Below, in pieces: positions 3,409 to 33,273 of a stretch of DNA of 64,000 bases (the stretch's first letter is position 1; each line of letters starts with the position of its first letter). Origin of the DNA: Sedimentisphaerales bacterium. GTDB taxonomy: Bacteria; Planctomycetota; Phycisphaerae; Sedimentisphaerales; Anaerobacaceae. The notes below the pieces were generated by a model that saw nothing but the letters and a program-made list of their open reading frames with translations, did not search any database and was not told where the DNA came from. Location of the stretch: assembly GCA_035476995.1 (NCBI GenBank), contig DATIKY010000344.1, positions 4,550 through 68,549 on the forward strand, read 5' to 3'. Both the position numbers and the translations under genes were made by a program.

Positions 3409-4008
3409 TTACACGGCGCCGCGTCGGCGGAGCCAGCCGACCAGACCGGTGCCCAGACTGCCCAGGATGATGGCAGCGGGAGCCGGAATAACAGGGGACT
3501 CCGGAGGCGCCGGAGGCTCTGGGACTTCATACGTGATGGCGAAGACCGCCGACCCGATCGTCGAGCGACTGTCCGCAAAATCCGGGTGACCCGTGAAGAA
3601 ATCGATCTTCATAGTCACACCACCGTCCAACTGCGGCAGGAAACCGAGAGACAGAAGATCGAACGAGGTCTGCTGAACAGGCTCGTACTGAAGCTGGCCC
3701 ACAAGCACATTGTCCAGATAGACCTTGTGGATCTCCCCAGCGAAGACATTCCAAGGTCCATCGACGCCCGTGTGGTTCACGATCAAGTTGGCACTCGTGA
3801 TACTCGTGAAGCCCGCGGGAACATCCCAACTGTACGTCCAGTTGACGGTGGTCGGAACCACGTTCTGATTCTGCGGGCCGTAGGTGCCCGCAGGCGCACC
3901 ACTTGGCGTGGTGGTTATCAGCGGACTCACCGGCGTCGCATGCGCCAAGCCGGTGATCCCAACCACGCAAAGGGCTATTAGTAATCCTCTCATCATAACC
4001 TTCTCCAT
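3409..4008 (-). CDS. PEP-CTERM sorting-domain protein (small secreted exosortase cargo)
   Basis: GGAGGTGA lies about 7 nt upstream of ATG 4006-4008. Signal peptide MEKVMMRGLLIALCVVGITGLAHA. C-terminus SPVIPAPAAIILGSLGTGLVGWLRRRGAV. Confidence 0.85.
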   Translation of the reverse strand: MEKVMMRGLLIALCVVGITGLAHATPVSPLITTTPSGAPAGTYGPQNQNVVPTTVNWTYSWDVPAGFTSITSANLIVNHTGVDGPWNVFAGEIHKVYLDNVLVGQLQYEPVQQTSFDLLSLGFLPQLDGGVTMKIDFFTGHPDFADSRSTIGSAVFAITYEVPEPPAPPESPVIPAPAAIILGSLGTGLVGWLRRRGAV

Positions 4009-5372: not shown

Positions 5373-8300
5373 CTAGCGGCCTTTCTGCAATTGGTCCAGA
5401 AGGAGCCTGGCCTCCGTCCAATCCTCGCCAGGCCGGACGTCCACCAGATCCTGTTGATCGAAGCCCATCTTGAATTGATCCATCTCTTCCTGGAGCGACA
5501 GCGCGTCCCGGAGCACTTTGATGGCATGCGTCCTGCGTAGGGCCTGGTCATGGTCCCGGGCCAACTGGATGCTCCTGCGGTTGAGGTTCAGGGCTATTCG
5601 GAGGTGCTCCACCGCCTGCGTCCTGCGGTTCGTCGCGGCATATACTCGCGCAAGATGGAACTGCGGCGCCGCCGACTGCGCCGAACCGGCGGGAAACAGC
5701 GAGAGACACTTCACAAGATCGGCCTCGGCCCTGGCCATGTCGCCGCTCTTGTAGTACGCGACGCCCCGCGTGTCGAGCAAATCCATGTAGTCCGGCATCA
5801 GCGACAGCCCCCGATTGGCCAGAGTCAGCGCCTCATTGGTCGCCTCGGCTGAGGGGGAAGGCTTGTCGCAGAGCATCCACGCCAGATTGTTGATCGCGAT
5901 GACGTTGTTGGGATCCAGCTCCAGGATTCGACGGTTGAGCCGGGCGGCTTCTTCATTTCGTCCCGCGTCCTGCATCAGCATGCTCAGGAGCACGAGGGTG
6001 GGCACCGCCTGGGGATTGGGGTCCAGGATCATGCGGAGTTGATCCTCCGCCATCTGGAGGCCCTCGCGATCTCCGCTCTGGGCCAGAATTCGGGCCATGT
6101 TGGTCGCGGTCTCGGCGTCCCTCGGACTGGTCGTGCGCCAACTGTTCAAGAGCTGGTTGACTTGGGTCCACCGCCTTTCCTTGCGGAGCAGTTGCCCCAG
6201 CAGCATCACCGGCGTCGGATCGTTCGGATCGGCGGCGATCAGCTTGTCGAAAAGCTCCTGGGCCTTCTCCCGCTGCTGATCGGTGTACAACGCGGCCGCC
6301 AGGGCGATCTCGCACCGCCGGCGCGCCAGGCCCTCGAAGTCCGCCAGCTTGCCGCTGAGCAACTCCACCGCCTTTTCCGACCGATTGGCCTGGGCGTAAG
6401 CGTCGGCCCACTCGATGAGAATGCCAACATCGTCGGGATACTGCTTGGCCAGCGACGGCAGGGTCGTCAGGGCCGCCACGGACGGAGAGAGCCTCTTCTC
6501 CGCGATGGCTTTGAGCAGAAGCAATTGCTTATGTTGTTCGTTGTGAGCCAGGGCCCGGGTAGCGAAGTCCAGCGCTCGGCCCGGCTCCCCCTGGTTGAGT
6601 TCGAGCTGCGTCATCAGTTCCCAGCCGTCCGCGTACTTGGGGTAGTCCGTCGTGACCTGTCGCAGAAGCTGGCGGGCCTCCTCGATGGATGGCCCGGTGC
6701 CCCGCAGAATCAGGATGCGGGCCTTGTACACGCGGAGTTGCGGGTCCTTCTTCTCCTGAGGGCCGCTCTGGTCGGCCAGGGCCTTGTCGAGCATGGCCTC
6801 CGCTTCTCGCAAGAGCGACTGTTTTCCGGAAGCGATGAATAGAGCCGCTGAGAGTTTCTGGATACGCGGCTCCTGGGGCGACAGGGCGAGCGCCCGTCGG
6901 ACGTCCGAGATCGCCTCGGGGACCCGCCCGGACAAGCTGTAGACCCGCGCCCGAGCCTCCCAGTTCTCCGCATTGTGCGGCTCCAGGGCGATCGCCTGCC
7001 CGAGGTCCTCCAACGCCTTGCCCCCCTGTCCCAGAGTAATCAGCATGTCGGCGCGAAGCAGATACGCCTTGGCGTTACGCAGTTGATCCACCGCTTCATT
7101 GCAGATCTGCATCGCCTTTCCCGTATTCCCCTGCTGAATGTGAAGTTGAAGCTGCGCACGAATCACGGGGATCACATTCGGATCCGGCGTCCGCGCCCTC
7201 AGATCGGAAAGGAGGGACTCCGCCTTGGCGAACTCCTTGCGGAGGACCAGAACCCTCGCGTACGACAGCGTAAGATTCGAGTTGTTCGGGTCGCGAAGGA
7301 CCATTTGCTCGAGCGTGTCCGACGCGGAGTCGATGTCGCCCCGGCGGTAATCGCGCTCCACCAGAAACTGCTGGAGGTCCGGGTTGTTCAACTGCTGCGG
7401 TCCCACTTTCTCCAGAATGGTCGCGGCCTCGTCGAACTCGTTGGCCTTGTGCAACGCCGTAACCAGCCGCACCAGCACCTGAGAATCGTTCGGCGATTTC
7501 TCGAACGCCTCGCGGTACATCGTCAGGGCCAACTGCTGTTCCCTCGCCATCTCGTAGGTGGCCGCCAGGAGCAGGCGACTGCCCTGGTCCTCGGGATTGG
7601 TCAGCAAATTCTCCTGCAGCAGCTTGACGGTCTGAGCATAGTGGCTGAACTTTTTCTCGGGGTCCCGTTTGACCTCGTCGGAGTGGAGGCGGATCCAGAG
7701 CCGGGCCTGTTCATACCGCCACCGAGAACCCCTCTCCCCCTCCAAGACCTTGATCTCCTCGATCACCTTCTGCGATCGAGATGCGTCCTGGACCAACTGA
7801 TCGCAGCCCAGCAGCATGCGCCGGGACTGAATGTCGTTGGGGAACTGCACCGTCAGGTCGGTGAGCCATTGGCACAGCTTCTCTTGTTCCTGCCATCGGT
7901 AATACAGCTCGGCGAGCAACAGACCGCAATCGCGGCGAAGCTGCGGCTCCTCAAACCTGGCGATGGCGGCTTTGAGTACCGATTCGCATTCGGTCCGCTG
8001 ATTCTGCCGATCCAGCAACACCGCCAATCCCCGCACCGGATCGAACGCCTGGGGATGCGCGGCAATCGCGTTCAGATACAACGTCCTGGCTTTTTCGTTC
8101 TGGCCCTCGGCGGCGCTGAGTTCCGCACGAACGAGCGTCAAGCGGAGCTCGGACGGATTCTTGCTTTCCAGCTCGCTGAGCGCCGAAGAGGCGTCCGCGA
8201 ACTTCCCCTGCGTCATGGCGATCTGGACCTGGAGCAGCTTGACGCCGGGGGCGCCGTTGGCCTCCTTGTCCAGGACCGCCAATTCGGTTTCAATCTCTCG

Positions 8301-9779
8301 CCACGCCTGTTCCTTGTTCTCCTCGACAGGCTTGGCGGCCAACAATTGGGTCCGAGCCTGCAGACCCAGCAACTTCGCCTCCGTGACGACCTGCGGATCG
8401 GTCTTGGCAAGCTCCACAAGTTGCCCAGCCAGTTCCTGCACCTTGGGCCAGTTTCTGGCCTGAGCGAACAGTTGCGTCAGATAAAGGCGGGCTTGGACAT
8501 ACTCGGATTGCGGAGCCGCCCCACTCTGCTCTCCAGGGCGTTTGTTCAGCATGATCTGCAACTGGTTGATCGCCGACTGCGTGTCGCCCAGGCGGGAATA
8601 GGCGGAAGCGAGCCGCCGGTACACCTCTTCAGGGGCCCGCGGGCTCAGGGAAATCGCCCGCTGCCAGCTCGCCACGGCGTCCCGCAGACGACCCTGCTTC
8701 TCCGCCAGCAGACCTTCGAGATAGGCCTGCGTCGGCGGATCCAGTTCCTGATCACGCATCCGGGCCAGATAGCCCTCGACGTTGTCCAGGCGTCCCGCGA
8801 AAATGAGCAGACGCGTTGCGGTGGCGATGAAATCCCAGGACTCCGACGTCGCCTTCATGCCTTCGTCGGCGACCATGAACATCTCGTCCGCAGAGGCCGT
8901 CCGGAAGGCCAGGACCGCCCAGGTCTGCCACAGCCGGGGGTCGGTCTTGTCGATCTCCTGCAGGGCCTGAAGCTGCTCCCTCGCCTTGTCCAGGTTCCCT
9001 GCGACGATCAGTCCCTCCACCAGAAGCAAGCGAGTCGGCGCGTCCGATAGATCGCACGACATCGCCCGCGTCAGGTCGGCCAGCGCCTTGTCCTTGTCTT
9101 TCTGCCCCAGATAGTATCCCGCTCGCGTGACATAAGCCCGGGCCGACTCGGGATTCTTCTCGACGGCGTCGTCTAACCAGGCAAGGGCCGGTCGCTTCAC
9201 GGTTTCGGGCCGTTCCGCAGCCCACAGGCCCATGACGGTGTACGCCGGAACCTCGCCGGGATATTTGTCAACGACGGTCTTGACCTCCGCCACAGCCTTG
9301 TCGAACTCTCGCAACTGCCAGAAGGCCTGCCCCAGCATTCGACGCAAGCCGGGATCGTCCTGGATCTCGAGATGGCGAGTCGCGATCCCGATGGCGTCGC
9401 TCGGCACTCTCATGTCCAGATATAGTTGCGTGAGCTTCTTGGCCGTCTCAATGTCGTTCGGTCGAAACCGCAGAGCGTTCCGGTAGGCCGCAATGGCCTG
9501 CTGGATGTTGCCCTGGCTCATCGGCCGGCGATTCATCTGCGCGTCGGCGTACTTGACCAGCATCGCGACATCCTGGTTGTTCCTCGCGATATAGCGGCCC
9601 AGTTGCTCGGCGGCCTCGTCCCATTTCTTCGCTTCGAAGGCTTTGAGCCCTCGCGGGAGCGCCTGCTCGGCTTTCGTGGTCGTCTGCCAGGCGTGCAGCG
9701 CGTACACCGAAACCCCGAAGACTCCCGAGGCGACGATCAGAACGATCGCCAGCTTCCAGTTGAAGTATCTCATCGCCAT
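5373..9779 (-). CDS. giant TPR-repeat protein with N-terminal membrane anchor (PEP-CTERM-system PrsT-like)
   Basis: 1468 aa. The N-terminal helix is WKLAIVLIVASGVFGVSVYAL. After it come dozens of 34-residue TPR-like units (e.g. AIAAYRNALRFRPNDIETAKKLTQLYLDM, ALEDLGQAIALEPHNAENWEARARVYSLSG). It lies inside the exosortase operon. Confidence 0.85.
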   Translation of the reverse strand: MAMRYFNWKLAIVLIVASGVFGVSVYALHAWQTTTKAEQALPRGLKAFEAKKWDEAAEQLGRYIARNNQDVAMLVKYADAQMNRRPMSQGNIQQAIAAYRNALRFRPNDIETAKKLTQLYLDMRVPSDAIGIATRHLEIQDDPGLRRMLGQAFWQLREFDKAVAEVKTVVDKYPGEVPAYTVMGLWAAERPETVKRPALAWLDDAVEKNPESARAYVTRAGYYLGQKDKDKALADLTRAMSCDLSDAPTRLLLVEGLIVAGNLDKAREQLQALQEIDKTDPRLWQTWAVLAFRTASADEMFMVADEGMKATSESWDFIATATRLLIFAGRLDNVEGYLARMRDQELDPPTQAYLEGLLAEKQGRLRDAVASWQRAISLSPRAPEEVYRRLASAYSRLGDTQSAINQLQIMLNKRPGEQSGAAPQSEYVQARLYLTQLFAQARNWPKVQELAGQLVELAKTDPQVVTEAKLLGLQARTQLLAAKPVEENKEQAWREIETELAVLDKEANGAPGVKLLQVQIAMTQGKFADASSALSELESKNPSELRLTLVRAELSAAEGQNEKARTLYLNAIAAHPQAFDPVRGLAVLLDRQNQRTECESVLKAAIARFEEPQLRRDCGLLLAELYYRWQEQEKLCQWLTDLTVQFPNDIQSRRMLLGCDQLVQDASRSQKVIEEIKVLEGERGSRWRYEQARLWIRLHSDEVKRDPEKKFSHYAQTVKLLQENLLTNPEDQGSRLLLAATYEMAREQQLALTMYREAFEKSPNDSQVLVRLVTALHKANEFDEAATILEKVGPQQLNNPDLQQFLVERDYRRGDIDSASDTLEQMVLRDPNNSNLTLSYARVLVLRKEFAKAESLLSDLRARTPDPNVIPVIRAQLQLHIQQGNTGKAMQICNEAVDQLRNAKAYLLRADMLITLGQGGKALEDLGQAIALEPHNAENWEARARVYSLSGRVPEAISDVRRALALSPQEPRIQKLSAALFIASGKQSLLREAEAMLDKALADQSGPQEKKDPQLRVYKARILILRGTGPSIEEARQLLRQVTTDYPKYADGWELMTQLELNQGEPGRALDFATRALAHNEQHKQLLLLKAIAEKRLSPSVAALTTLPSLAKQYPDDVGILIEWADAYAQANRSEKAVELLSGKLADFEGLARRRCEIALAAALYTDQQREKAQELFDKLIAADPNDPTPVMLLGQLLRKERRWTQVNQLLNSWRTTSPRDAETATNMARILAQSGDREGLQMAEDQLRMILDPNPQAVPTLVLLSMLMQDAGRNEEAARLNRRILELDPNNVIAINNLAWMLCDKPSPSAEATNEALTLANRGLSLMPDYMDLLDTRGVAYYKSGDMARAEADLVKCLSLFPAGSAQSAAPQFHLARVYAATNRRTQAVEHLRIALNLNRRSIQLARDHDQALRRTHAIKVLRDALSLQEEMDQFKMGFDQQDLVDVRPGEDWTEARLLLDQLQKGR

Positions 9780-9891: not shown

Positions 9892-11604
9892 TCAGAACTG
9901 ATTCACAAAATTCTCAACCATTCTGCGGAATGTCCGCCAGCAGATCCACAGATCCAGCCCCGGCGAGAGATTCCGGACGTATTCCGTGTCGTAATGAATC
10001 CACTCCTGGAAATCCTTGTGGGCCGCACGAGTCCTGCAGACCTGCCACAACCCGGTGATGCCCGGTCGCACGGAAAGCCTCGCGTCGCGCCACGAGGCAC
10101 ACAACGTATTCTCGAATTCGGGCGACGGCCTGGGTCCCACCACGCTCATCTGCCCGCACAGCACATTGAAGAACTGCGGAATCTCGTCCAGATACGTCTC
10201 CCGCAGAAAGCGTCCGACCGTCGTGATGCGCGGGTCGTCCGCCATTTTGAACTGGGGACCGTCCACCTCGCAGACGAACCGCAGCTTGTCCTGCATCTTG
10301 TCGGCCCCCTGACGCATGGTGCGAAACTTGATGCAGTCGAACATCTTGCCGTGAAGGCCCTGCCGCCTGTCGTGGAAGAAGATCGGCCCCGGAGAGCTCA
10401 AGCGGACCGCCAGGGCGATCACCGGGATCACCGGCGCAAACAGCGCCAGCACGATCACAGCGGCGAACACGTCCGCCATCCTCTTGATCGAGCGGGCGTA
10501 CGAAAACTTCGGCCACGTGCGAAACGCGCTCTCCAAACGACCACATACGTGCTCTCGCGGCTTCGTTGCCCGCCGGACTGTCCCGGCGTCGCCTCCGTTT
10601 CCGTTCCGCCCCGGCTCCCGCGCCAGGCGGCCGCGAAGCACTTGGCCGGACTCCACCGACACGCGGGTCCCCACAATCGCGGAATCGACCACCGAGTCCC
10701 TGCGAACCGTGCAATCGTCGCACAAGACGGCCGGTCCCACAACGATGGCGCCGGGCTCCACCGTCACCTTCCGGCCCAGCACGACCGGACCGATCAGACG
10801 AGGGGCGTCGCCGACGCCGTCGCGGCCAGGGACGTCGTTGGGGTCGCGCAGGGTCGAGGAGGACGGCTCTCGCGACTCGGAGAGCCCCAGGACCATTCCA
10901 CACACGGCCAGCATGCCTTCCTCGGAATCCAGATCGAACACCGTCCCCGCGACGGCCATTCCGCGCATCGTATAGTTTCCGGCCCGGCACGCGTCGACCA
11001 CCGCGTCGAAGCCGGCCAGCAGATTCGGCTTGACGACCGCCTCGAACATGTCCGGTCGGACCAGCAGATGGTTCGGCCACCCGGCCGGCACCGCTATCGG
11101 CACGACCGAATCGGCGAACAACCGCCGATAGCCGACCAATCGATTGTCCGGCGTGAGACGAACCCGTTCCCGATAAGCCATCAGTTCCGGATCGATGTTC
11201 ACCGCGATGACGTCCGCCTGCATCCCCTCCACCGCGCGCGTCACCAGCAGGTGGTTCACGCACGTCGCAAACCGGCCGTCCGTGACAACGACCCACCGGT
11301 CGTTGTGTTGCGGAAGACCGTCGGCCCGGGCCCGTTCCCAGGAACATCGCGACAGACGATCGATCGAGACCTCTTGGCACCAGGTTTCCGGAAGAATCCA
11401 CTGGGATTGACGCGGGCTTGTCCAGCCGGCCATGGGAGGCCGACCGACCGCCGTGCGGCACCGCCACAAATGGTCCATCCCGTCCAACAGCACCCGGTTC
11501 AACGGGTTCGTGGACAAACCATACCGCAGCAGACTCCCTCTGCCGCCGACGGCGCTGTCTCCACTGTCTCGAATGACGATCGCCTGCATATCCAACCAGA
11601 TCAC
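9892..11604 (-). CDS. priming polyprenyl-phosphate sugar transferase (EpsB/WbaP-type, PF02397-like) with N-terminal nucleotidyltransferase-like + hexapeptide-repeat module
   Basis: The C-terminal 195 aa carry a TM helix ([22 protein letters not shown]) and bacterial sugar transferase hallmarks ([58 protein letters not shown]). The N-terminal ~330 aa contain [13 protein letters not shown] and the hexapeptide run [32 protein letters not shown]. Confidence 0.85.
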
Positions 11605-11636: not shown

Positions 11637-13940
11637 TCAGTTCTCCGCCGGACGATCGCCGCCCGGTCCGGACGACGCCAGCAGCAGCTTCTTAGGTTTG
11701 CCGCCCTTGCGGGTGGTGGCCGCACTTCGCGACCGATACGTATAGCCTTGACGATACAGGCCCTGATCCGCAGGGACGTTGCTCACGACGGCGCCCAGGA
11801 TTCGCGCCCGGATGCGGGCGAACCGCTCCTTGGCCTCCTTCAGATCGGGCCCAGTCGTCTGCCCGGCGAAGCTGACCAGGATCACCGCGTCGGTGAGCTT
11901 GGCCCAAACCAGCGCGTCGGGGAAAGCCAGCGTCGGCGGACTGTCCACGATCAGGTGATCGTACTCCCGTCCCAGTCGCTCCATCTGCTCGGAAGCCGTG
12001 GAGGAGGTCAGCAACTCATAGGCGTCGCCCGAGTGGCGGGGATTGGCCGCCAGAACGTGCAGGCCGCTCGACGGCAGCACGCACACGACGCCGCTGGGGT
12101 CTTCGCCCAGCAGAACGTTCTGCAGACCGCTGGTGTTGTTCAGGACGTTGAGCATGTGCCCGATGTCGGGCTTTCGAAGATCGCCGTCGATCAGCAGCAC
12201 CTTCTTGCCGGACTTGGCCAGGCTGGTCGCCAGGTTGACCGCGAACGTGGTCTTGCCCTCGCGCATGCCGGGGCTGCTGATGACGAGCCGCTTGGGCGTG
12301 CCCCCGTTGTACAGGAGACCGAGGTTGGTGCGGATCGTCTGATAGTCGCCCGCGATCTGCTCGGCGAACAAGGCCGGCTTGACCGTCCGCGAACTCGTCG
12401 TGGTCCCGAGAATCGGCAGATCGGCCTGCCGCATGATATCCGCCGGAGTCTGGATCGTCTTATCCAGCTTATCCCGCAAGAACGCCAGGCCCAGTCCGCA
12501 TCCCAGCGCGCCGAACACCACCATGCCGGCATATTTGACGCGGTCATCGTCCTTGCCTTTCACCTCCGCCATCGAGGCGATCTCCACGCGGGGCCGGCGA
12601 TCCCGCTCCATCTCGAACCATTTGAGCCGCTGGTTCACCCGATCGAGCACCTGTTCATTCATTTCCAGACTGCGCTGCTCGTCCTGGATGTCGAGATTGG
12701 TGGTTCCCATCTCGACGGTCCGCGCCTGCTGCACGCTCAGAATGCGCCGGATTTCGTCGATGTGGGCTTCGACCTGGGTCTTCTGGGCCTTGGCTTCAAG
12801 CACCCGCTGCTGGGCCGCTTCCTTGAGTCTGCCCTCCAGATTGGCGTCGAACTCCTCCGCGAGAACCTTGCGCCGCTCCTCGAGTTTCTGCTGAAAAGCT
12901 TTCAGCACCGCCAATCGCTGCGTGTAAACCGGGTTGCCCGGCAGGTGCGTCTGCTGGGCGACGATCAACTCCCGCTCCATCTGGACGATGTTGGTCGACA
13001 ACTCCGCGATCATAGGATCCGAGTTGATGTGGTTGGTGCGCGCGTTCACGATCTGCTCCGGGGCCAGCGACATCACCTCGGTCTTCTCGTATACGCCGAT
13101 GTCCGCTTCGATCTTGACCCGATCCGCCTCGAGTTGGGTCAGTCGGCCCTGCAAGGCGCTTTGGGTCTGGAGCTCCACCGCCTGGAGAGCGTCGAGCCCG
13201 GTCGATCCGTACTGCATCGCCATTTTCCGGAGCTTGCTTCGCGATTCGGCGATTCGTTTCCCGTACTCATTCCGCTGAGTCTCCAGAATCGTGATATTCT
13301 GGCTCTCGCTCGTCGTGGTCTCCACGCCGTACTGGCCGACGTAGTTGCGCAGGAATGAATTGACGATGATCCGAGCCTCGTCGTCGTTCTGGCTCCTCAT
13401 CGTCACCGCCATCAGTTCGGAGCCCTGCAGGTAACCGGCCGTAATCTTCTGCTTGGCGATCGCCTTGCGAAGGACCTGGTCGGGCAGTTCATTGACGTCC
13501 TTGGGCAGAATTCTCGCCAGGAGCTTCTCGATCCGCGTGCTGGGCCTGCCGCTGAAGAACGCCAGATTGCGACCCGCCAGGTCGTCTACGATCTTCTGAA
13601 GCCGCTGCTCGTCCGTTATCAACAGCATGGCCTGGGTGTTCACGAACGGCGCGTAGCTGGACACCTCGTCGGGCGACGGCGTGTTGTCCAGAATGCCAGG
13701 GACCACTGGTTTGACTCGAACCAGGCCCTGGACCACATACACCGGCTCGACCAGGAACCACACCACAGGGAGCCCGGCCGCGATGATCAGCAACGCCACG
13801 ACCACGACGATGGGCCATCGCCTGCGCACACTCTCCATGAGGTTCGACGTCGGGGGGGCTTCCTGGACCTCGGCCGGCGGCTCATAGACGATCGGCTTCT
13901 GCTCGATCACCTGATCCAGATACTTCTCCAGGTTGTTCAT
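11637..13940 (-). CDS. polysaccharide co-polymerase / tyrosine autokinase (Wzc/GumC-type chain-length determinant)
   Basis: It has an N-terminal TM helix, a Wzz-like region, a long coiled-coil periplasmic region and a second TM helix. The C-terminal P-loop domain reads ISSPGMREGKTTFAVNLATSLAKSGKKVLLIDGDLRKPD, with a short Tyr-containing tail YRQGYTYRS. Confidence 0.9.
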   Translation of the reverse strand: MNNLEKYLDQVIEQKPIVYEPPAEVQEAPPTSNLMESVRRRWPIVVVVALLIIAAGLPVVWFLVEPVYVVQGLVRVKPVVPGILDNTPSPDEVSSYAPFVNTQAMLLITDEQRLQKIVDDLAGRNLAFFSGRPSTRIEKLLARILPKDVNELPDQVLRKAIAKQKITAGYLQGSELMAVTMRSQNDDEARIIVNSFLRNYVGQYGVETTTSESQNITILETQRNEYGKRIAESRSKLRKMAMQYGSTGLDALQAVELQTQSALQGRLTQLEADRVKIEADIGVYEKTEVMSLAPEQIVNARTNHINSDPMIAELSTNIVQMERELIVAQQTHLPGNPVYTQRLAVLKAFQQKLEERRKVLAEEFDANLEGRLKEAAQQRVLEAKAQKTQVEAHIDEIRRILSVQQARTVEMGTTNLDIQDEQRSLEMNEQVLDRVNQRLKWFEMERDRRPRVEIASMAEVKGKDDDRVKYAGMVVFGALGCGLGLAFLRDKLDKTIQTPADIMRQADLPILGTTTSSRTVKPALFAEQIAGDYQTIRTNLGLLYNGGTPKRLVISSPGMREGKTTFAVNLATSLAKSGKKVLLIDGDLRKPDIGHMLNVLNNTSGLQNVLLGEDPSGVVCVLPSSGLHVLAANPRHSGDAYELLTSSTASEQMERLGREYDHLIVDSPPTLAFPDALVWAKLTDAVILVSFAGQTTGPDLKEAKERFARIRARILGAVVSNVPADQGLYRQGYTYRSRSAATTRKGGKPKKLLLASSGPGGDRPAEN

Positions 13941-13958: not shown

Positions 13959-15938
13959 TTAAGGGTCTGGTACGTGTTGAGGTTGCCGCCGGGAAACGAT
14001 GGCCAGCTCGATCGGAACCGGGAGGGTGGTCAGCCGGGTCAGAACCCACAGCTCCACCACCACCACGCCCAGCGCCAGGGGCATCATGGCGTATCCGCCG
14101 TAATCGTGAAACCCCTGTCTCCATCCTTCTCCCTCGATCATCGTAAAAGCCACGCTTGTCACCGCAAGTCGCAGCGTATTGCACAACAGAGCGATCGGAA
14201 GGCTGGAGATCAGAATGACCGCCTTGGCCCACCATTCCCGCCGCGTCAACAGCACGACCAAGCCGGTGATCACGAAGAACGCCGTGATCATCCGCAGACC
14301 GTTGCACGCCTCGGCCACCGCCACGCTCGTGTCTCCGATGTGGATGATGTTGCCGTCCCGCAGGATATCCCAGCCGCCCAACTCCAGGCAGAAGACCGCC
14401 GAGCCCGTGGCCCACTGCTGCAGCGGAATCGCCAGCGCCTGCTGGACGCGGTTGGGCCAGGGCAGCATCAGGCACAGAAACACCAGCACGCCCGCCAGCT
14501 TCCACAGATGTCGCCAGCCCAGCATCAACAGCACCAGCGCCGCAACCGCCAGAACCAGGGACAACCGCTCGGCCGACTGATACATGTAGAACAGTCCCGC
14601 CGTACGGAGCGCCTGCGTGGCGACGATCGCCGCCCCCCCCGCCAGAATCGCCGAGCGGAGTCGAATCGCGCCAAACTCCTGCCGGCGCGACCAGACCACG
14701 TAAGCCGCCAGGAACGGAACCAGCATTCCCGAGGAATACTCGTCGCTTCGAGTCCAGATGTCCATCAGTTCGCCCATGGTGGGCCAGTACGACCACAGCA
14801 GCGCGGCCAGGACCGCCAGACCCGCGGACAACAGGGCCGTCTGACCGGGCGACAGACCCAGCCGCTCGCCCAGGGACCGCAGGAACCGGTCGGCTCGCGA
14901 TGCCCCGACCGGGACCGCCTGCGCGGGATCGACCACGCGCTCGCCCTCCTCGCAAGACGCCGTCCGTCGGACGACACAGTCGTGGTCCGGCACCGAGACC
15001 CGATAATCCAGGATCGAATCGCGAACCTGAGAACCCCTGCCGATCACGGCCCCCGCCCACAACACGCTCTTGACCACCGCGCTGTTCTCGCCCACCACGA
15101 CGTTACGTCCGATCATCGCAGGACCCATGACCACCGCGCCCTCCAGAATCCGGGCGTGATCACCGATCAGGACCGGCCCACAGATTCGAGCGCCGGGATG
15201 CGTAACCGCCTCGACGCCTTCATATATCGGACCTTGCCGCGACATCTCGCAGGTTCCATCGCGCAGCCCGACCAGCCTACCGCTTTGAAACAGAGTGTCG
15301 ACCGCCTCAAGGTATCCCGTGTGATCGTGGAAGTTCCCGACCGAATGCGAGAGCACGAACGGCCGAACCGTTCCTCCCGCGCGCAGAATCGCCGGAACCA
15401 CGCCCTCTTTGATGTCTGAATAACCGCCGCAGGGAATCCGCTCAAGCACCTGCGGCTGGCACAAGAAGATCTCCGCCGCCGGACCGGGCTTCGCGGAATC
15501 CGACGTTCCGGGATTGAATACCATCGTCAGGTCGGCTCCCCCGGCTCGATGCGTCTCGACGAGCTCCGCGATCGAGGGTGGAACCGCGAGGCTGCCGGAG
15601 AGCACAAGAATCGGACCCTGGGAATCGCGGGGCGCCGCGTCGCGAAGGCACCCCCCCGTTCCGTTGATCAGTTCTTCGACCCGAAGCGTCACCGCCAACC
15701 GGCTGTCGCGACACATCGCCGTCACGTCCGCCGCCACGTCGCCCGGGCAACAGACGGTCACGTCGGAGAGCCCCTCCTCGGCCAGATGATCCAGCAACCG
15801 CGCCAGCGCGGGCCGGTCCGCGATCGGCCACAACGCCGCAGGCAGACGCGCAGCCAGCGGGCATCGTCCGAAGTCGCGTCCTCCGACGAGCACGACCGTG
15901 CAGATCTCCAGGCCCTTCACTGTGTTTTCACCGGCCAT
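13959..15938 (-). CDS. exosortase (EpsH family) fused to an N-terminal nucleotidyltransferase-like + hexapeptide-repeat module
   Basis: The start was set at ATG 15936-15938 (MAGENTVKGLEICTVVLVGG). The C-terminal ~290 aa are polytopic and carry exosortase active-site motifs: VAVAEACNGLRM (Cys), LLCNTLRLAV (Arg) and GFHDYGGYAMMP (His). The N-terminal ~330 aa contain LVGGRDFGRCPL..LWPIADRPAL and the LbH run RICGPVLIGDHARILEGAVVMGPAMIGRNVVVGENSAV. Confidence 0.85.
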   Translation of the reverse strand: MAGENTVKGLEICTVVLVGGRDFGRCPLAARLPAALWPIADRPALARLLDHLAEEGLSDVTVCCPGDVAADVTAMCRDSRLAVTLRVEELINGTGGCLRDAAPRDSQGPILVLSGSLAVPPSIAELVETHRAGGADLTMVFNPGTSDSAKPGPAAEIFLCQPQVLERIPCGGYSDIKEGVVPAILRAGGTVRPFVLSHSVGNFHDHTGYLEAVDTLFQSGRLVGLRDGTCEMSRQGPIYEGVEAVTHPGARICGPVLIGDHARILEGAVVMGPAMIGRNVVVGENSAVVKSVLWAGAVIGRGSQVRDSILDYRVSVPDHDCVVRRTASCEEGERVVDPAQAVPVGASRADRFLRSLGERLGLSPGQTALLSAGLAVLAALLWSYWPTMGELMDIWTRSDEYSSGMLVPFLAAYVVWSRRQEFGAIRLRSAILAGGAAIVATQALRTAGLFYMYQSAERLSLVLAVAALVLLMLGWRHLWKLAGVLVFLCLMLPWPNRVQQALAIPLQQWATGSAVFCLELGGWDILRDGNIIHIGDTSVAVAEACNGLRMITAFFVITGLVVLLTRREWWAKAVILISSLPIALLCNTLRLAVTSVAFTMIEGEGWRQGFHDYGGYAMMPLALGVVVVELWVLTRLTTLPVPIELAIVSRRQPQHVPDP

Positions 15939-16321: not shown

Positions 16322-17695
16322 CTACCATTTTGATTCCAGACCGCCCGGGGCGTTTCCCCCGGAAGGAGGGTCCTCGCTTCCCTGCCGCGAGGAGGCTGGC
16401 CGCCCCACCCCGAAGTACGTAAGCCCCGCTCGGGACACGCTCTCGGGATCGTAGAGGTTCCTGCCGTCAAAGAGGACGGGCTGTCGAAGCCGACTGCGGA
16501 TTGTCCCAAAATCAGGCGTGCGGAACTCCGGCCAATCCGTCAGGACGACCAGTCCATCGCAGCCGTCCAGCATCGCGTATGCATCCGCATGCAGATCAAT
16601 GGCCCCGTCCAGAGCGGCCAGCGCCGCCGGACCGGCCTGTGGATCGTAGGCTCGCACTCTCATTCCGGCCTCCGCGAACCGCCGAACACAATACACCGCG
16701 GGGGACTCACGGATGTCGTCCGTGTTGGCTTTGAACGCCAATCCCCACACGGCCAGAGCGCATGGAGGTTGCCCCCCGGCGAAATGCCGGATCACCCGGC
16801 CGGCGAAATGGTCACGGGCGGCGGCGTTGACCTTCCAGACAGCCTCGATCAGCGGCATGTCCGCGCCGTGGGCGCGTCCCATGTGGACCAGCGCGTGGAT
16901 GTCCTTGGGGAAACAACTGCCCCCGAATCCGATGCCGGGAAACAAGAAGGCCGACCCGATCCGACTGTCAGAGCCCAGACCCTGTCGCACCAGTTCGATG
17001 TCCGCCCCCATCTGCTCGCACAGCATGGCGATTTCGTTCATGAAGGAGATCCGCGTCGCGAGCATGCCGTTGGCCGCATACTTGGTCATCTCGGCCGACG
17101 CCGGGTCCATGAAGAGGACTCGCTTGCTCTTTCGCATGAACGGCTTGTACAACTCGGCCATGACGTCCCGCGCCCGCTGGCTGGTGGTTCCGATAATGAT
17201 GCGGTCCGGCCTCGTGAAATCCTCGACCGCGGCCCCCTCCTTGAGGAACTCCGGATTGCTCACGTAGTCGAATGGAACGTCCGTGTGCGAGCGGATGATC
17301 CGGCTCAGCGTCTCGTGGGTCCCGACCGGAACCGTGCTCTTCATCACGATGACGCGATAGTCCGCCAACTCGGCGCCCAGGGCGTGCGCAACGGCGCAGA
17401 CGCCGTCCAGATTGGCCGAGCCATCCGAGGCCATGGGCGTGCCCACGGCCAGGAAGACGATCTGCGAGTTGCTCACGCCTTCCTTCAGGTCGGTCGTGAA
17501 CCGCAGGCGTCCGGTCTTGACGGTGCTCCGCACGATCTCCTCCAGACCCCGCTCATAGATCGGGATTTCGCCGTGACGAAGGCCCTCGATCCTGCGAGCG
17601 TCGCTATCGACGCAGATCACATGATTGCCGGCCTCGGCAAGACAGGCTCCGCTCACCAAACCGACGTAACCGACTCCGACGACGCATAGTCTCAT
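16322..17695 (-). CDS. ugd: UDP-glucose 6-dehydrogenase
   Basis: MRLCVVGVGYVGLVSGACLAEAGN (Rossmann GxGxxG), NPEFLKEGAAVEDF, and the catalytic-Cys motif GFGGSCFPKD. Confidence 0.85.
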   Translation of the reverse strand: MRLCVVGVGYVGLVSGACLAEAGNHVICVDSDARRIEGLRHGEIPIYERGLEEIVRSTVKTGRLRFTTDLKEGVSNSQIVFLAVGTPMASDGSANLDGVCAVAHALGAELADYRVIVMKSTVPVGTHETLSRIIRSHTDVPFDYVSNPEFLKEGAAVEDFTRPDRIIIGTTSQRARDVMAELYKPFMRKSKRVLFMDPASAEMTKYAANGMLATRISFMNEIAMLCEQMGADIELVRQGLGSDSRIGSAFLFPGIGFGGSCFPKDIHALVHMGRAHGADMPLIEAVWKVNAAARDHFAGRVIRHFAGGQPPCALAVWGLAFKANTDDIRESPAVYCVRRFAEAGMRVRAYDPQAGPAALAALDGAIDLHADAYAMLDGCDGLVVLTDWPEFRTPDFGTIRSRLRQPVLFDGRNLYDPESVSRAGLTYFGVGRPASSRQGSEDPPSGGNAPGGLESKW

Positions 17696-17780: not shown

Positions 17781-19094
17781 TCACCAGCAGATGCCGTAGT
17801 ACTTCCCTTCCTGTGTCGTCTGCGGCGTAATCCGAACCAGGTCCACCACGACCTGGCCGGGCCGGACTCGATCCACGATCCCCTCGAATTCCGCGGACCT
17901 GTTGCCGATAACAAGCGCCTCCGCGTGGTCGAGGACCTCATCGAGAGTCTCGACCATCAGGCTCGAAATGTGCGGAATCAGATTCAGCAGATGGTCCCGG
18001 TTGGTGCCGATCAGGCGGGCCATGTTGACATCCCTGTCGTAGACGCGGATGTCGTGGCCCTTGCCGAGCAGCCGCTCGATCACATTGACCATGGGGCTCT
18101 CGCGGAGGTCGTCGGTCCCTGCTTTGAAGCTCAAACCCAGAACCCCGATCTTCTTCTTGCCCCGGTCCAGGATCAGGTCCAAGCCCCTCTCGGTCTGCAT
18201 CCGATTGCTCGGGAGGATCGCGTTGAGGATCGGCAGCTCCAGGTCCAGCGTCCGCGCCTTGTGGGTCAGGGCCCGCAGGTCCTTGGGCAGACACGAGCCG
18301 CCGAACGCAAAACCGGGCTTCAGATACGACGAGGACAGATTGAGCTTCGTGTCCTGACAGAAGATGTCCATCACCGCGTGACTGTCGATGCCCGAGGCCC
18401 GACAAACGTCTCCGACTTCGTTGGCGAAGCCGACCTTCAACGCGTGCCAGGCGTTGTCCACGCACTTGACCATCTCCGCCACTTCGATCCGTGTGCGGAT
18501 CAAAGGGGCGTCCATCTTCTCGTAGAGGGCAACCACCCGGTTTCCGCTGACAGGATCGCTTTCGCCGATCACGATCTTGGGCGGATGGCGATAATCGTGA
18601 ACTGCGGTCCCCTCGCGGAGGAACTCCGGATTGTGGCAGACGCCGAAGCCTTCGCCCACCCGTTTGCCCGAATGCTCCTCCAGCAGCGGGATCACTACGC
18701 CCCGCATCGTTCCCGGCGGAACCGTGCTGCGGCAGACCACCACGTGGTAATCGTCGATGCGACGCAGCGATCGGGCGATCTCCTCGCACACCTTGCGGAC
18801 GGACTTGAGGTCCGCGCCGCCATTGGCCTGGCCGGGCGTCCCCACGCAGATCAGCGACAGGTCCGAGGCCGCCATCGCCTCCTCCATGTCCGTCGTGGCC
18901 CGGAGAGTCCCCCGCGTCACCGCCTCGCGAATCAGCTCGGGCGTCCCGTTCTCGACGATCGGCGAGAGCCCGTCGTTGATCATGTCCACTTTCGCCCGGT
19001 TGGCGTCCACGCCGAGGACGGCGTGCCCCTCCTTCGCCAGGCAGGCCGCACTCACCAGCCCGACATATCCGACGCCGACGACGCACACTCTCAT
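17781..19094 (-). CDS. nucleotide-sugar 6-dehydrogenase, GDP-mannose dehydrogenase (AlgD)-like
   Basis: The start was set at ATG 19092-19094 (MRVCVVGVGYVGLVSAACLAKEGH). KVDMINDGLSPIVENGT resembles AlgD KIDLINQGKSPIVEPGL as I remember it. Also NPEFLREGTAVHDY and AFGGSCLPKD. Substrate is inferred only. Confidence 0.7.
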   Translation of the reverse strand: MRVCVVGVGYVGLVSAACLAKEGHAVLGVDANRAKVDMINDGLSPIVENGTPELIREAVTRGTLRATTDMEEAMAASDLSLICVGTPGQANGGADLKSVRKVCEEIARSLRRIDDYHVVVCRSTVPPGTMRGVVIPLLEEHSGKRVGEGFGVCHNPEFLREGTAVHDYRHPPKIVIGESDPVSGNRVVALYEKMDAPLIRTRIEVAEMVKCVDNAWHALKVGFANEVGDVCRASGIDSHAVMDIFCQDTKLNLSSSYLKPGFAFGGSCLPKDLRALTHKARTLDLELPILNAILPSNRMQTERGLDLILDRGKKKIGVLGLSFKAGTDDLRESPMVNVIERLLGKGHDIRVYDRDVNMARLIGTNRDHLLNLIPHISSLMVETLDEVLDHAEALVIGNRSAEFEGIVDRVRPGQVVVDLVRITPQTTQEGKYYGICW

Positions 19095-19120
19095 GCGATG
19101 CCCCTCACGGAGGATCCCGC

Positions 19121-19771
19121 CTACGCCTCTCCGCCGACGGCGATGAGCGTCTCGGCCATGAACGTCACTCTCTGCTTGACGATCCGGCTCCCCGGGAAGC
19201 ACCTCGCCAAATCGGACGCGCTGAGCAGGCGGATTCCGCTGACCGGGACGCCGAGCATGTACCTGCGGTCGATGTGGTTATACCGCACCAGTCGCCCGGC
19301 GAGCAGATATCCATGCCAGGGCAGCCAGGTCACGAACGGCAGGCGCAGGTGAAATTCGAAGGGATACCAGCGGTTTGGCGTGGTCACGAACCATCGCTTG
19401 CCCACCCGCATGATCTCGCTGGCCATCCTGCGCTGATCCTCCGGACCCCCGACATGCTCGATGACGGCGTTGGAGTAGACGATGTCGAAGTGCTTGTCCG
19501 GCCAAGGCATCGCGCGCGCGTCTCCGACCCGGGCATCCACATCGGGATGGCGGCCCTTGATCCGCTCTACATGCTCCGGCAGGAGATTCAGCGCGCTGAC
19601 GTTCTTGGGCCACGAATAGACGTCGAGCAACTGCAAACCGTCGCCTCCGTCCGACCCGGCCTGCGACCCCACGTCCAGAACGCGCATCTGTTCCACCGGC
19701 TTCATGGTCTGGTCAAACAGCTCCAGTTTCTTCCTTCGGCTCACGACCGATAAACGGGAAAACACGCTCAT
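19121..19771 (-). CDS. class I SAM-dependent methyltransferase
   Basis: Motif I is VLDVGSQAGSDGGDG. FDIVYSNAVIEHV is typical of Methyltransf_11-type proteins. The start ATG overlaps the upstream stop (ATGA). Confidence 0.8.
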   Translation of the reverse strand: MSVFSRLSVVSRRKKLELFDQTMKPVEQMRVLDVGSQAGSDGGDGLQLLDVYSWPKNVSALNLLPEHVERIKGRHPDVDARVGDARAMPWPDKHFDIVYSNAVIEHVGGPEDQRRMASEIMRVGKRWFVTTPNRWYPFEFHLRLPFVTWLPWHGYLLAGRLVRYNHIDRRYMLGVPVSGIRLLSASDLARCFPGSRIVKQRVTFMAETLIAVGGEA

Positions 19772-20265
19772 GCACGAGCCTCCTCTCTGTTGAGTCCTTC
19801 CAGGAAGAGGGAGATTCGCCGGATCACAGCATCCGGACTCGGGCGGCGGATCTGCGGGACGAAGGCCTTGAGCTGGCCGATTCGCCCGGGCAGTTCCGTC
19901 TCATCCCTGGCCACCAGGATATGGCCGCACGCGGCGAACTTGTTCGCCAATCCCTCCTGGTGGTCGTTGACGACCTCGCCGTAGCGGCGTCGGCGAGGCA
20001 TGGCCAGCATCGCCTTGCCGTGGTCCATCGCCATCGCGATGGTCCCCATCCCCGCGTGGCTGATGACGGCCGAGGCCTTCACCAACTGCATGTCGAAGGC
20101 GTTCTTGTCCAGAGCGGTCACCGCCTCGAAGTGGCGGGGCTTGTACGCGCTGTCCCCCACCTGAGCGAAGATCTCTTCGCCAATCGCCCCCGTGCCGGCC
20201 AAATCGTCCACCGCCCGAACCAGACGATCAAATGGAAACTGAGTCCCCACGGTAAGAAAGATCAT
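19768..20265 (-). CDS. glycosyltransferase family 28 C-terminal-domain protein (Alg13 / Cps14G / PssE-like catalytic subunit)
   Basis: MIFLTVGTQFPFDRLVRAVD ... VISHAGMGTIAMAMDHGKAMLAMPRRRRYGEVVNDHQ matches the MurG-C/Alg13 pattern (TvGt..F..L .. H.G.gs .. P). It overlaps the upstream partner gene by 4 nt. Confidence 0.75.
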   Translation of the reverse strand: MIFLTVGTQFPFDRLVRAVDDLAGTGAIGEEIFAQVGDSAYKPRHFEAVTALDKNAFDMQLVKASAVISHAGMGTIAMAMDHGKAMLAMPRRRRYGEVVNDHQEGLANKFAACGHILVARDETELPGRIGQLKAFVPQIRRPSPDAVIRRISLFLEGLNREEARA

Positions 20266-32477: not shown

Positions 32478-33131
32478 TCAGCGAAGGTTTCTTCGCCGAA
32501 CCAGACCGACCACGAAGGAACCCAGACCCGTCAACAGCAGCGCGCCGGGGGCGGGAATCACCGCGGCGTTCAAGACCATGTCGCTGACCAGAAGGCCAAC
32601 CGGGTTTGCATGAGCGTACAACGGACCATTCACGACCCTGAACTCGAGGGTATTCCAATCGTCCAGGATGAAACCGGTATCGATCACGAAGCCCTCGAGG
32701 CTTTTGTAGCCGGCGGTCGCCCGCTCAATACCCGTCCACACATCGTTCAGGTAGATCTTCCCGAAGTCATCGGTCGCCCACTTGCCGGTGATCCAGATCT
32801 TCATATTTGCAGCATCATCCGACGAGAGATAGAACGACTGGGTGAACGAGTACGCACCGGGCGCATCGGTCTTGCTGCCCTGCGTGGGGGCAATCCACCT
32901 GCTGTCGGCCGGGGCAGGCAGCCACGCCGGGTGAGCCGTCACGGCCAAAGCGGGGGCCGGTCCGCTGGGCGTCACCAGCGTGTAGTGGGTGTCAGTCGCC
33001 CCACTGGCCAGCGGAACGAACGAATTGTCCACACCCGTGTTGTAAATCGTCGGGACAGCCATGGCCTGACCGCCGAGCACGCAGGCAATCACAGCCACCA
33101 CCAACATTCGAATCACTTTGACGTTCTCCAT
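32478..33131 (-). CDS. PEP-CTERM sorting-domain protein (small secreted exosortase cargo)
   Basis: The start was set at ATG 33129-33131 (AGGAGG-N6-ATG). Signal peptide MENVKVIRMLVVAVIACVLGGQAMA. C-terminus AAVIPAPGALLLTGLGSFVVGLVRRRNLR. Confidence 0.85.
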   Translation of the reverse strand: MENVKVIRMLVVAVIACVLGGQAMAVPTIYNTGVDNSFVPLASGATDTHYTLVTPSGPAPALAVTAHPAWLPAPADSRWIAPTQGSKTDAPGAYSFTQSFYLSSDDAANMKIWITGKWATDDFGKIYLNDVWTGIERATAGYKSLEGFVIDTGFILDDWNTLEFRVVNGPLYAHANPVGLLVSDMVLNAAVIPAPGALLLTGLGSFVVGLVRRRNLR

Positions 33132-33244
33132 AGTCATCCTCCTAAAAAAAACCAGGACAAATTCCGGGACGTCTGTCCAACGTAGGTCCGGACACGACCA
33201 CCGAAAGACGCACAAGCATCTACAGAAGCCCATCATTTTGAACC

Positions 33245-33273
33245 AGTATACCATGATTACGAAAGGATGTCAA
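33245..33273 (-). promoter_or_regulatory. near-consensus sigma70-type promoter with extended -10 (TTGACA-N17-TGg-TATACT on the minus strand)
   Basis: The minus strand reads TTGACATCCTTTCGTAATCATGGTATACT. On the plus strand this is TGTCAA 33268-33273 and AGTATA 33245-33250. It sits in an AT-rich gap about 110 nt upstream of the PEP-CTERM gene start. Confidence 0.5.

Follow-up and report, generated by a model that had tools for sequence, protein, structure and literature searches.

PglB from Neisseria is reportedly a phosphoglycosyl transferase (PGT) fused to an acetyltransferase of the left-handed beta-helix (LbH) type. Enzymes in which the PF02397 core is joined to an extra soluble domain form a class of their own, the BiPGTs (PMC10942596, PMC11257628). 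In the WbaP homodimer, an embedded domain of unknown function (DUF) is involved in the dimer, appears regulatory, and may be an allosteric UMP site (PMC10942596), and the PGT EpsZ is activated by a partner protein, via dimer formation as modelling suggests (PMC12802240). As to exosortases, the 2006 description of the system mentions a C-terminal EpsI region as the sole fusion partner of EpsH, and two questions have been open since then: to what exosortases attach their PEP-CTERM substrates, and by what means sorting and exopolysaccharide (EPS) synthesis are coupled (PMC1569441). The subject of this report is a 64,000-nucleotide stretch of a Sedimentisphaerales genome (contig DATIKY010000344.1 of assembly GCA_035476995.1, positions 4,550 to 68,549; hereafter the window), in which a priming PGT and an exosortase each carry an N-terminal module predicted to consist of a nucleotidyltransferase (NTase)-like domain followed by an LbH domain.

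Proteins with this pair of domains also work as heteromers. VTC1/KONJAC, eIF2B gamma/epsilon, and the large and small subunits of plant ADP-glucose pyrophosphorylase are paralogous NTase-LbH hetero-oligomers. The LbH domains of this subfamily form homo- and hetero-oligomers of several kinds, and the statement of the initial annotation that LbH domains trimerise therefore names one arrangement among several. GMPPA, a non-catalytic paralogue, binds GDP-mannose and interacts with GMPPB (PMC11228364).

The window exemplifies a real, clade-wide architecture in which paired pseudo-nucleotidyltransferase modules flank a Wzc-like gene, one being carried by the priming transferase and the other usually by the exosortase. 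The genes and domains concerned are as follows, in window positions.

13959-15938, minus strand: exosortase fusion gene, 659 aa from the ATG at 15938 (gene call P0071), the open frame reaching 16076; PF09721 177.9 bits (cut-off 25.7), TIGR02602 142 bits (cut-off 105.55)

14949..15938, minus strand: exosortase residues 1-330, NTase-like domain (1-225) and LbH (229-330), assigned by PDB profiles, hhalign, and AlphaFold2 with Foldseek

13962..14819, minus strand: exosortase domain of eight helices, residues 374-659, with invariant C545, N546, R549, N587, R590, and H611

11637-13940, minus strand: Wzc-like protein of 767 aa, with a chain-length-determinant domain, a coiled coil, and a tyrosine autokinase; TIGR01007 119.7 bits (cut-off 108) and a weak Wzz match

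9892-11604, minus strand: transferase fusion (priming PGT) gene, an open reading frame (ORF) of 570 aa from the GTG at 11604; PF02397

10855..11604, minus strand: degenerate NTase-like alpha/beta domain, transferase residues 1-250, assigned by AlphaFold2 and Foldseek, without the GxGTR/PK signature

10609..10812, minus strand: LbH of about 3.5 turns, transferase residues 265-332, with short regular strands and pLDDT 93-95

9895..10509, minus strand: monotopic PGT core, transferase residues 366-570, PF02397, with a re-entrant membrane helix at about 373-403 and D473-E474

The transferase resembles the BiPGTs in that a PF02397 core with a re-entrant helix is combined with an extra soluble domain at one terminus. 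It differs from them in that the fused part is a two-domain NTase-like and LbH unit without catalytic signatures, not an active acetyltransferase or glycosyltransferase, and in that an obligate second copy of the module is encoded upstream, with one gene between. With the large monotopic PGTs (WbaP, EpsZ), it shares an N-terminal accessory region, which in those enzymes controls oligomeric state and activity; however, neither the transmembrane bundle nor PF13727 is present, and another fold stands at the same position. GMPPA/GMPPB-type pairs have the same two-domain fold, are the top Foldseek or PDB matches of both modules, and have lost catalysis in one or both partners. Unlike those pairs, which are soluble and serve nucleotide-sugar synthesis or translation, both modules look inactive here, each is tethered to a different membrane enzyme, and a pairing between them is suggested indirectly, by synteny and rate co-variation.

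The locus is also like the EPS loci of the PEP-CTERM/exosortase (EpsH/XrtA) system, where the exosortase lies among EPS genes together with a PF02397 transferase, a chain-length determinant/kinase, and a PrsT-like tetratricopeptide repeat (TPR) protein (PMC1569441), and cargo-like genes are found nearby. The cargo signal, however, is (I/V)PAPGA and not PEP, and the exosortase, unlike EpsH of the 2006 description, has an N-terminal NTase-LbH fusion. The exosortase scores below the cut-offs of the subtype models (XrtD, 152 against 400 bits; XrtA, 138.8 against 208), and the scores with the models of the other XrtA-system components are likewise too low (TIGR03013 transferase, 168.5 against 393; TIGR03018 kinase, 86.1 against 230.65; PrsT, 301.3 against 312.2). 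The locus is related to the XrtA system, not a member of it. A literature search found no description of an NTase-LbH fusion to an exosortase or a PGT; the 2021 PNAS sequence similarity network catalogue of PGT fusions and a 2021 review lay outside its coverage, and a prior mention there is possible.

Judged by their sequences, the catalytic cores of both enzymes are intact. PF02397 matches residues 374-563 of the transferase with 202.9 bits (cut-off 27), which bears out the original assignment of a PF02397-type core at the C-terminus, and the family profile finds WbaP and PglC structures in the PDB with E=1e-45 to 1e-33. In the AlphaFold2 model, made from 59 sequences, the re-entrant helix-break-helix consists of helices 373-389 and 393-403. 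Both P391 in this element and D473-E474, the latter being presumably the catalytic dyad known from PglC and WbaP, are invariant across the 59 sequences, and the priming transferase thus looks functional. Every feature tested places the window protein in the monotopic PGT family. Since its homologues begin at MQAIV, translation probably starts at the ATG at 11589, for a length of 565 aa. On the exosortase side, both profiles are above cut-off, and C545, R549, N587, R590, and H611 are invariant in 66 sequences.

About 365 residues precede the PGT core, and in the AlphaFold2 model they form an NTase-like domain and an LbH. The mean pLDDT is 69; the alpha/beta part covers residues ~1-245, with most of 30-240 at 70-95, and the beta-helix at 268-330 reaches 93-95. 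The top PDB structures found with this model by Foldseek are two-domain NTase+LbH proteins aligned over 360-450 columns, tlr0611 (8x7s) having E=3e-10, and ST0452, GlmU, GMPPA/B, VTC1, eIF2B, and ADP-glucose pyrophosphorylase follow with weaker E-values. At the sequence level, Pfam and NCBIfam return nothing for residues 1-260, and PF00483 matches nowhere in the transferase module. The LbH is recognized through weak, below-cut-off matches of the hexapeptide/LbH_EIF2B/GMPPB_C families (PF00132, PF25084, and PF25087) at residues 271-325, PF00132 giving 17.8 bits against a cut-off of 27, while the family profile matches PDB LbH proteins with E=1e-7. The NTase-like domain has motifs specific to the family, a 17-residue motif and DWPHH. 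Residues W104, G110, R161, W176-P177, F199, and G220 of the module are invariant, and R160 and D224 are near-invariant; the family has no conserved G-loop motif. Global hhalign alignments, of low confidence and used for register and motif inspection only, place AYRER of the transferase opposite AFQEK, with an insertion thereafter.

The module of the exosortase can be recognized as an NTase with an LbH from its sequence. Its profile matches PDB entries over both domains, including Leishmania GMPP (7whr, E=3e-18), tlr0611 (8x7s, 4e-17), eIF2B epsilon, GMPPB, and VTC1, and hhalign aligns it to the free-standing cyanobacterial tlr0611 family over 294 columns with E=8e-20. Foldseek with the AlphaFold2 model of the exosortase finds essentially the same NTase+LbH proteins as with that of the transferase; for both proteins, the alignments span ~330-630 columns, mostly 360-490, and, to judge from PDB entry titles, the structures matched include VTC1/KJC2 and eIF2B gamma/epsilon complexes. 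The LbH scores 33.1 bits with PF00132, above the cut-off of 27, while PF00483 gives 14.7 bits, below its cut-off of 21.2. Five near-invariant cysteines of this module (C26, C63, C64, C97, and C160, in the contexts GRC, VCC, GTAGC, and YLC) lie in loops that border the nucleotide pocket of related enzymes, which raises the idea of a metal (Fe-S) or redox site; in a stand-alone homologue at locus L066, two of these residues are Ser.

The two modules have the same two-domain layout, which for the NTase-like half of the transferase is a matter of predicted structure. Helices and strands follow one another identically in both models, except for extra transferase strands at 146-170, and the earlier impression that the transferase N-terminus is laid out like that of the exosortase is upheld in that both models run from NTase-like domain to LbH. 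By BLASTP, the two N-termini align in the hexapeptide run only (E=1e-4), with the residues paired just as originally proposed. Comparison of whole-module profiles gives 98.3% probability and E=1.7e-14 over 153 columns, and it includes the pairing of a central region that had been suggested; this pairing has no statistical support of its own without the LbH. A pairing of degenerate Gly loops had been suggested too, and the transferase loop is indeed degenerate, but in the colinear alignment its GGRG is out of register with the exosortase loop by ~7 residues, and it is not conserved in the family.

The LbH halves are clearly homologous in profile comparison and are each other's best match. The LbH of the transferase (PGT) and exosortase (XRT) modules score 93.7 against each other (E=1e-18), versus 73.0 (E=6.6e-14) and 76.8 (E=4.5e-14), respectively, against the cyanobacterial tlr0611 family. 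The PGT-module profile scores 62-94 (median ~78) with single XRT-type segments versus 46, 40, and 69 with single segments of 7whr, GMPPB, and tlr0611. These scores support a closer relation of the two modules to each other than to the outside family, by a modest margin and with few outgroups. The NTase-like halves alone show no significant similarity (profile-profile E=0.16, with an out-of-register alignment). Hence, it is the LbH that holds the 153-column alignment in place, and this alignment is no proof that the N-terminal halves are homologous; since the homology signal comes from the LbH, a fold common to the first 250 residues would follow from predicted structure and colinearity. Over the whole module, moreover, the exosortase copy is nearer to the free-standing tlr0611 family (143.6, 294 columns) than to the transferase copy (~107, 153 columns). 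The description of the transferase module as a paralogous copy is thus an oversimplification. The exosortase module has a 26-residue deletion that removes the FxEKP hairpin, and the extra strands of the transferase model are found at this position; if they are a retained hairpin, the duplication, if any, predates the deletion. Most probably, an NTase-LbH gene was duplicated long ago and the transferase copy then diverged very fast, while independent recruitment of the two modules is possible.

A predicted Rossmann-like NTase fold with a C-terminal LbH is found in both modules, with low TM-scores for the transferase, and neither of them has the GxGTRxxPLT...PK signature, FxEKP, or the metal-binding Asp. 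Compared with the tlr0611 family, the exosortase module has G-x-x-D-F-G-R(-C) in place of G-K-G-T-R. The Lys of PK is replaced by T, A, or V and is not among the three commonest residues at its column in 51 sequences; the Asp of GD is replaced by Ser, which is invariant in the XRT alignments, and that of WxDxG by Asn. Since the core NTase motifs are absent, both modules are probably pseudoenzymes, and we infer that neither makes a sugar nucleotide; by the same loss of motifs, neither looks like an ordinary active enzyme, a case on which the initial annotation had made its proposal depend. In other words, the modules share the NTase fold but do not belong to the NTase family in a functional sense, lacking the signature and a Pfam match above cut-off. 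The Pfam LbH matches of the modules are of the non-catalytic eIF2B/GMPPB type. Both modules evolve 2-4 times faster than their own cores (mean distances 1.06 and 1.43 versus 0.52 and 0.34).

The architecture is widespread within one clade. At 90% identity, the transferase fusion falls into 70 clusters, whose near-full-length members have ~540-590 aa and the same architecture, and it is represented by 333 sequences at E<=1e-10 in a 50%-identity library of 1.84 billion representatives. The best 150 matches in this library all appear to be PGT fusions or their fragments, so that the next family was not reached; of the ten that were sampled, nine are such fusions or fragments, and one is an apparent mis-call running in from the adjoining Wzc-like gene. 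The exosortase fusion forms at least 259 clusters, and among its carriers is a cultured species, Anaerobaca lacustris (P0177). The source names these proteins only "sugar transferase" and "exosortase" and assigns almost all of them to metagenome-assembled genomes of Phycisphaerae, Sedimentisphaerales, or unclassified Planctomycetota, a few labels being likely mis-binned. The carriers are sediment and digester bacteria (Phycisphaerae).

Species-representative genomes were scanned twice independently, with one seed per module, which gave 33 (PGT) and 65 (XRT) loci that were then searched with domain hidden Markov models. Wherever there was enough flanking DNA for both genes, the two fusion-type genes were found together, in 54/54 of the testable loci seeded with XRT and 28/28 of those seeded with PGT, on the same strand and at a distance of ~2.3-2.6 kb; whether the fusions always co-occur had been posed as a question, and in the genomes sampled they were never apart. 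All loci with complete sequence keep the order exosortase fusion, Wzc-like gene, transferase fusion, TPR protein. No locus that spans the interval between the two fusion genes in full lacks a Wzc-like gene there, and the TPR gene comes directly after the transferase fusion in almost all loci that extend far enough, L088 giving no match at the threshold.

Three loci carry the exosortase-type module (module 1) as a stand-alone protein of 360-380 aa with the same hairpin deletion: L066 (9974-11077), L081 (9887-11026, the same as L031 6300-7439), and L099 (4579-5661). No exosortase domain was seen within 10-kb flanks at L066 and L081 or in the called genes up to 8 kb upstream at L099. In all three, the cassette is otherwise intact, with the Wzc-like gene and then the transferase fusion coming next; the copy at L099 is more distant and keeps the PK lysine (TPKGLWP). 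Because module 1 stands alone there, the partnership lies between the modules: what is constant is module 1, module 2 (that of the transferase), and the Wzc-like gene, not the exosortase and the transferase as such. Two further candidates for stand-alone exosortase-type modules, P0110 and P0113, were rejected as frameshift-fragmented genes on long-read contigs. At L100 and L101, which are long-read contigs from ENA, most genes of the cassette region are in short fragments, consistent with indel errors of assembly, which gave rise to P0110 and P0113 as artefacts. The contigs of the most distant PGT fusions, P0336 and P0327, end before the upstream genes. P0336 (L097, 139-4207) is a distant NTase-like/LbH-PGT fusion with stronger hexapeptide matches, followed by genes for a Wza-like Poly_export protein and a beta-barrel, not by a TPR gene.

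Across 51 unique pairs, the correlation of domain distances is highest of all between the exosortase and transferase modules (xrtN-pgtN, r=0.873; partial r=0.571 when both cores are controlled for), and the partial correlations of each module with its own fused core are 0.007 and 0.085. This rate co-variation of the two modules is suggestive only.

Our preferred explanation, with a probability of roughly 45%, is that the two modules are non-catalytic, membrane-tethered cytoplasmic relatives of sugar-1-phosphate nucleotidyltransferases of the GMPP/tlr0611 type and work as a pair. Both are predicted to be cytoplasmic because they have no signal peptide and, in each enzyme, basic residues immediately precede the first membrane helix. 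They would act as oligomerisation or regulatory domains, with the transferase module occupying the position that the four-helix bundle and nucleotide-binding DUF have in large PGTs. By analogy with GMPPA/GMPPB, VTC1/KONJAC, eIF2B gamma/epsilon, and plant ADP-glucose pyrophosphorylase, the modules may contact each other, probably via the LbH; such contact would govern the oligomeric state of the priming transferase, and with it the activity, and, in most lineages, might also hold the exosortase beside the site where the lipid-linked glycan is initiated. A bolder version, which we consider rather unlikely, is that a heteromeric bridge of the modules, possibly with the Wzc-like kinase, docks the exosortase onto the priming transferase, and that cleaved (I/V)PAPGA-CTERM proteins are handed to the nascent lipid-linked glycan or their sorting is gated by it. 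Matching modules co-inherited on an exosortase and on the enzyme that initiates glycan assembly provide a concrete hypothesis of physical or regulatory coupling between the two. They would also represent a new accessory-domain solution for the control of monotopic PGTs, in place of the four-helix bundle and DUF, and another case of NTase-LbH enzymes reused as pseudoenzymes. Were the bridge real, exosortase sorting would for the first time be physically connected to glycan assembly, and bacteria would have a membrane-tethered equivalent of the GMPPA/GMPPB and eIF2B gamma/epsilon pairs; if the modules are independent, the finding is that of a lineage-specific domain architecture only.

Several points speak against a working pair. 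The NTase-like fold of the transferase is read from one AlphaFold2 model (mean pLDDT 69) and from Foldseek TM-scores of 0.3-0.44, and its sequence shows no significant similarity to the corresponding half of the exosortase module. The outgroup is a single free-standing family of low sequence diversity. The exosortase module keeps many invariant residues round the former active site and may bind a ligand or catalyse another reaction. The xrtN distances also correlate with those of the transferase core (pgtC, partial r=0.475), a mirror-tree signal can arise as the fastest-evolving domains track phylogeny best, and strict synteny is expected of any co-functioning EPS genes with or without physical contact.

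A rival account makes the modules independent accessory domains, each homo-oligomerising or regulating its own enzyme, with the NTase-LbH scaffold recruited separately into one EPS operon and no contact between the copies. Such independence is doubtful yet deserves serious consideration: large PGTs homodimerise through their own accessory domain (PMC10942596), the exosortase module is nearer to the free-standing enzymes than to its supposed partner, the NTase-like halves are unrelated at the sequence level, and the FxEKP hairpin is lost in one module and apparently kept in the other. On this account, however, it would not be expected that the LbH halves are each other's best match, that co-occurrence is 100% both ways, or that the xrtN-pgtN rate correlation tops all domain pairs, and the persistence of module 1 beside the Wzc-like gene and the PGT fusion even when unfused is hard to explain if it serves the exosortase only. 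An improbable alternative has both modules sensing one nucleotide sugar without contact, for instance UDP-glucuronate made by the two UDP-glucose dehydrogenases encoded directly upstream. GMPPA-type pseudoenzymes bind the product nucleotide sugar (PMC11228364), and the XRT module keeps the pocket motifs GTAGCLRDA, GYSDIKEG, and DFGRC; but it is without the sugar-phosphate-binding EKP hairpin, the G-loop of the PGT module is wholly lost, and the NTase-like halves have no common pattern of conserved residues, which makes a single shared ligand less likely. The proposal of the initial annotation that one small-molecule signal governs both modules is weakened accordingly.

That the exosortase-side module is an active enzyme of altered chemistry, which might for example nucleotidylylate a substrate that sorting or the glycan requires, or activate it in some other way, with the transferase-side module a decayed relic, is very improbable. 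Its strong conservation (mean column identity 67%), the near-invariant cysteines round the former active site, a precomputed PF00483 match in about half of the listed homologues, and the PK lysine of the stand-alone L099 copy would fit such an enzyme. They are countered by the absence of the signature Lys in the 51 fused sequences, by the missing GD Asp and EKP hairpin relative to the tlr0611 family, and by the below-cut-off PF00483 score of the window protein; the PGT module, being a conserved family with invariant residues of its own, is no decaying relic. Finally, a chance effect of repetitive hexapeptide sequence, with an unrelated domain at the transferase N-terminus, can practically be set aside: without the LbH the sequence comparison is indeed not significant, but the LbH alone gives E=1e-18, the helix/strand order is common to both models, and residues 1-245 are predicted to fold like NTase domains, colinear with the LbH and immediately upstream of it as in the enzyme family.

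The paired modules belong to a larger gene cassette. One gene, the Wzc-like one, separates the exosortase and transferase fusions, which had been taken to be two genes apart, and all three are on the minus strand. In transcription order, the gaps are 18 nt between the exosortase fusion and the Wzc-like gene, 32 nt between the latter and the transferase fusion, and 112 nt from there to the TPR gene; short gaps of this kind suggest that the genes are co-transcribed. A consensus scan of the cassette for promoters and terminators gave counts no higher than in shuffled sequence. The neighbouring genes are the following.

17781-19202 and 16322-17695, minus strand: two nucleotide-sugar (UDP-glucose-type) dehydrogenase paralogues in tandem, directly upstream of the exosortase fusion

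5373-9779, minus strand: giant PrsT-like TPR protein of 1468 aa, the fourth cassette gene; TIGR02917 301.3 bits, slightly below the cut-off of 312.2

Further upstream of the dehydrogenases are genes for a methyltransferase (19121-19771) and a PssE/Alg13-like glycosyltransferase (19768-20265); together with the dehydrogenases, they point to a polysaccharide that contains uronic acid.

Three ORFs on the minus strand (1321-1977, 3409-4008, and 32478-33269) end in a PEP-CTERM-like signal, (I/V)PAPGA(V/L)LLG.LG..VG.L(R/K)RR. This variant has PAP where PEP-CTERM has PEP, and the three are likely cargo of the window exosortase; NCBIfam gave no match for the one compared with it. The C-terminal tail of the Wzc-like protein bears a small tyrosine cluster, GLYRQGYTYRS, as in tyrosine autokinases, and the Tyr-containing conserved motifs of the transferase module (AYRER, GYRRLY) might, as pure speculation, be targets of phosphorylation.

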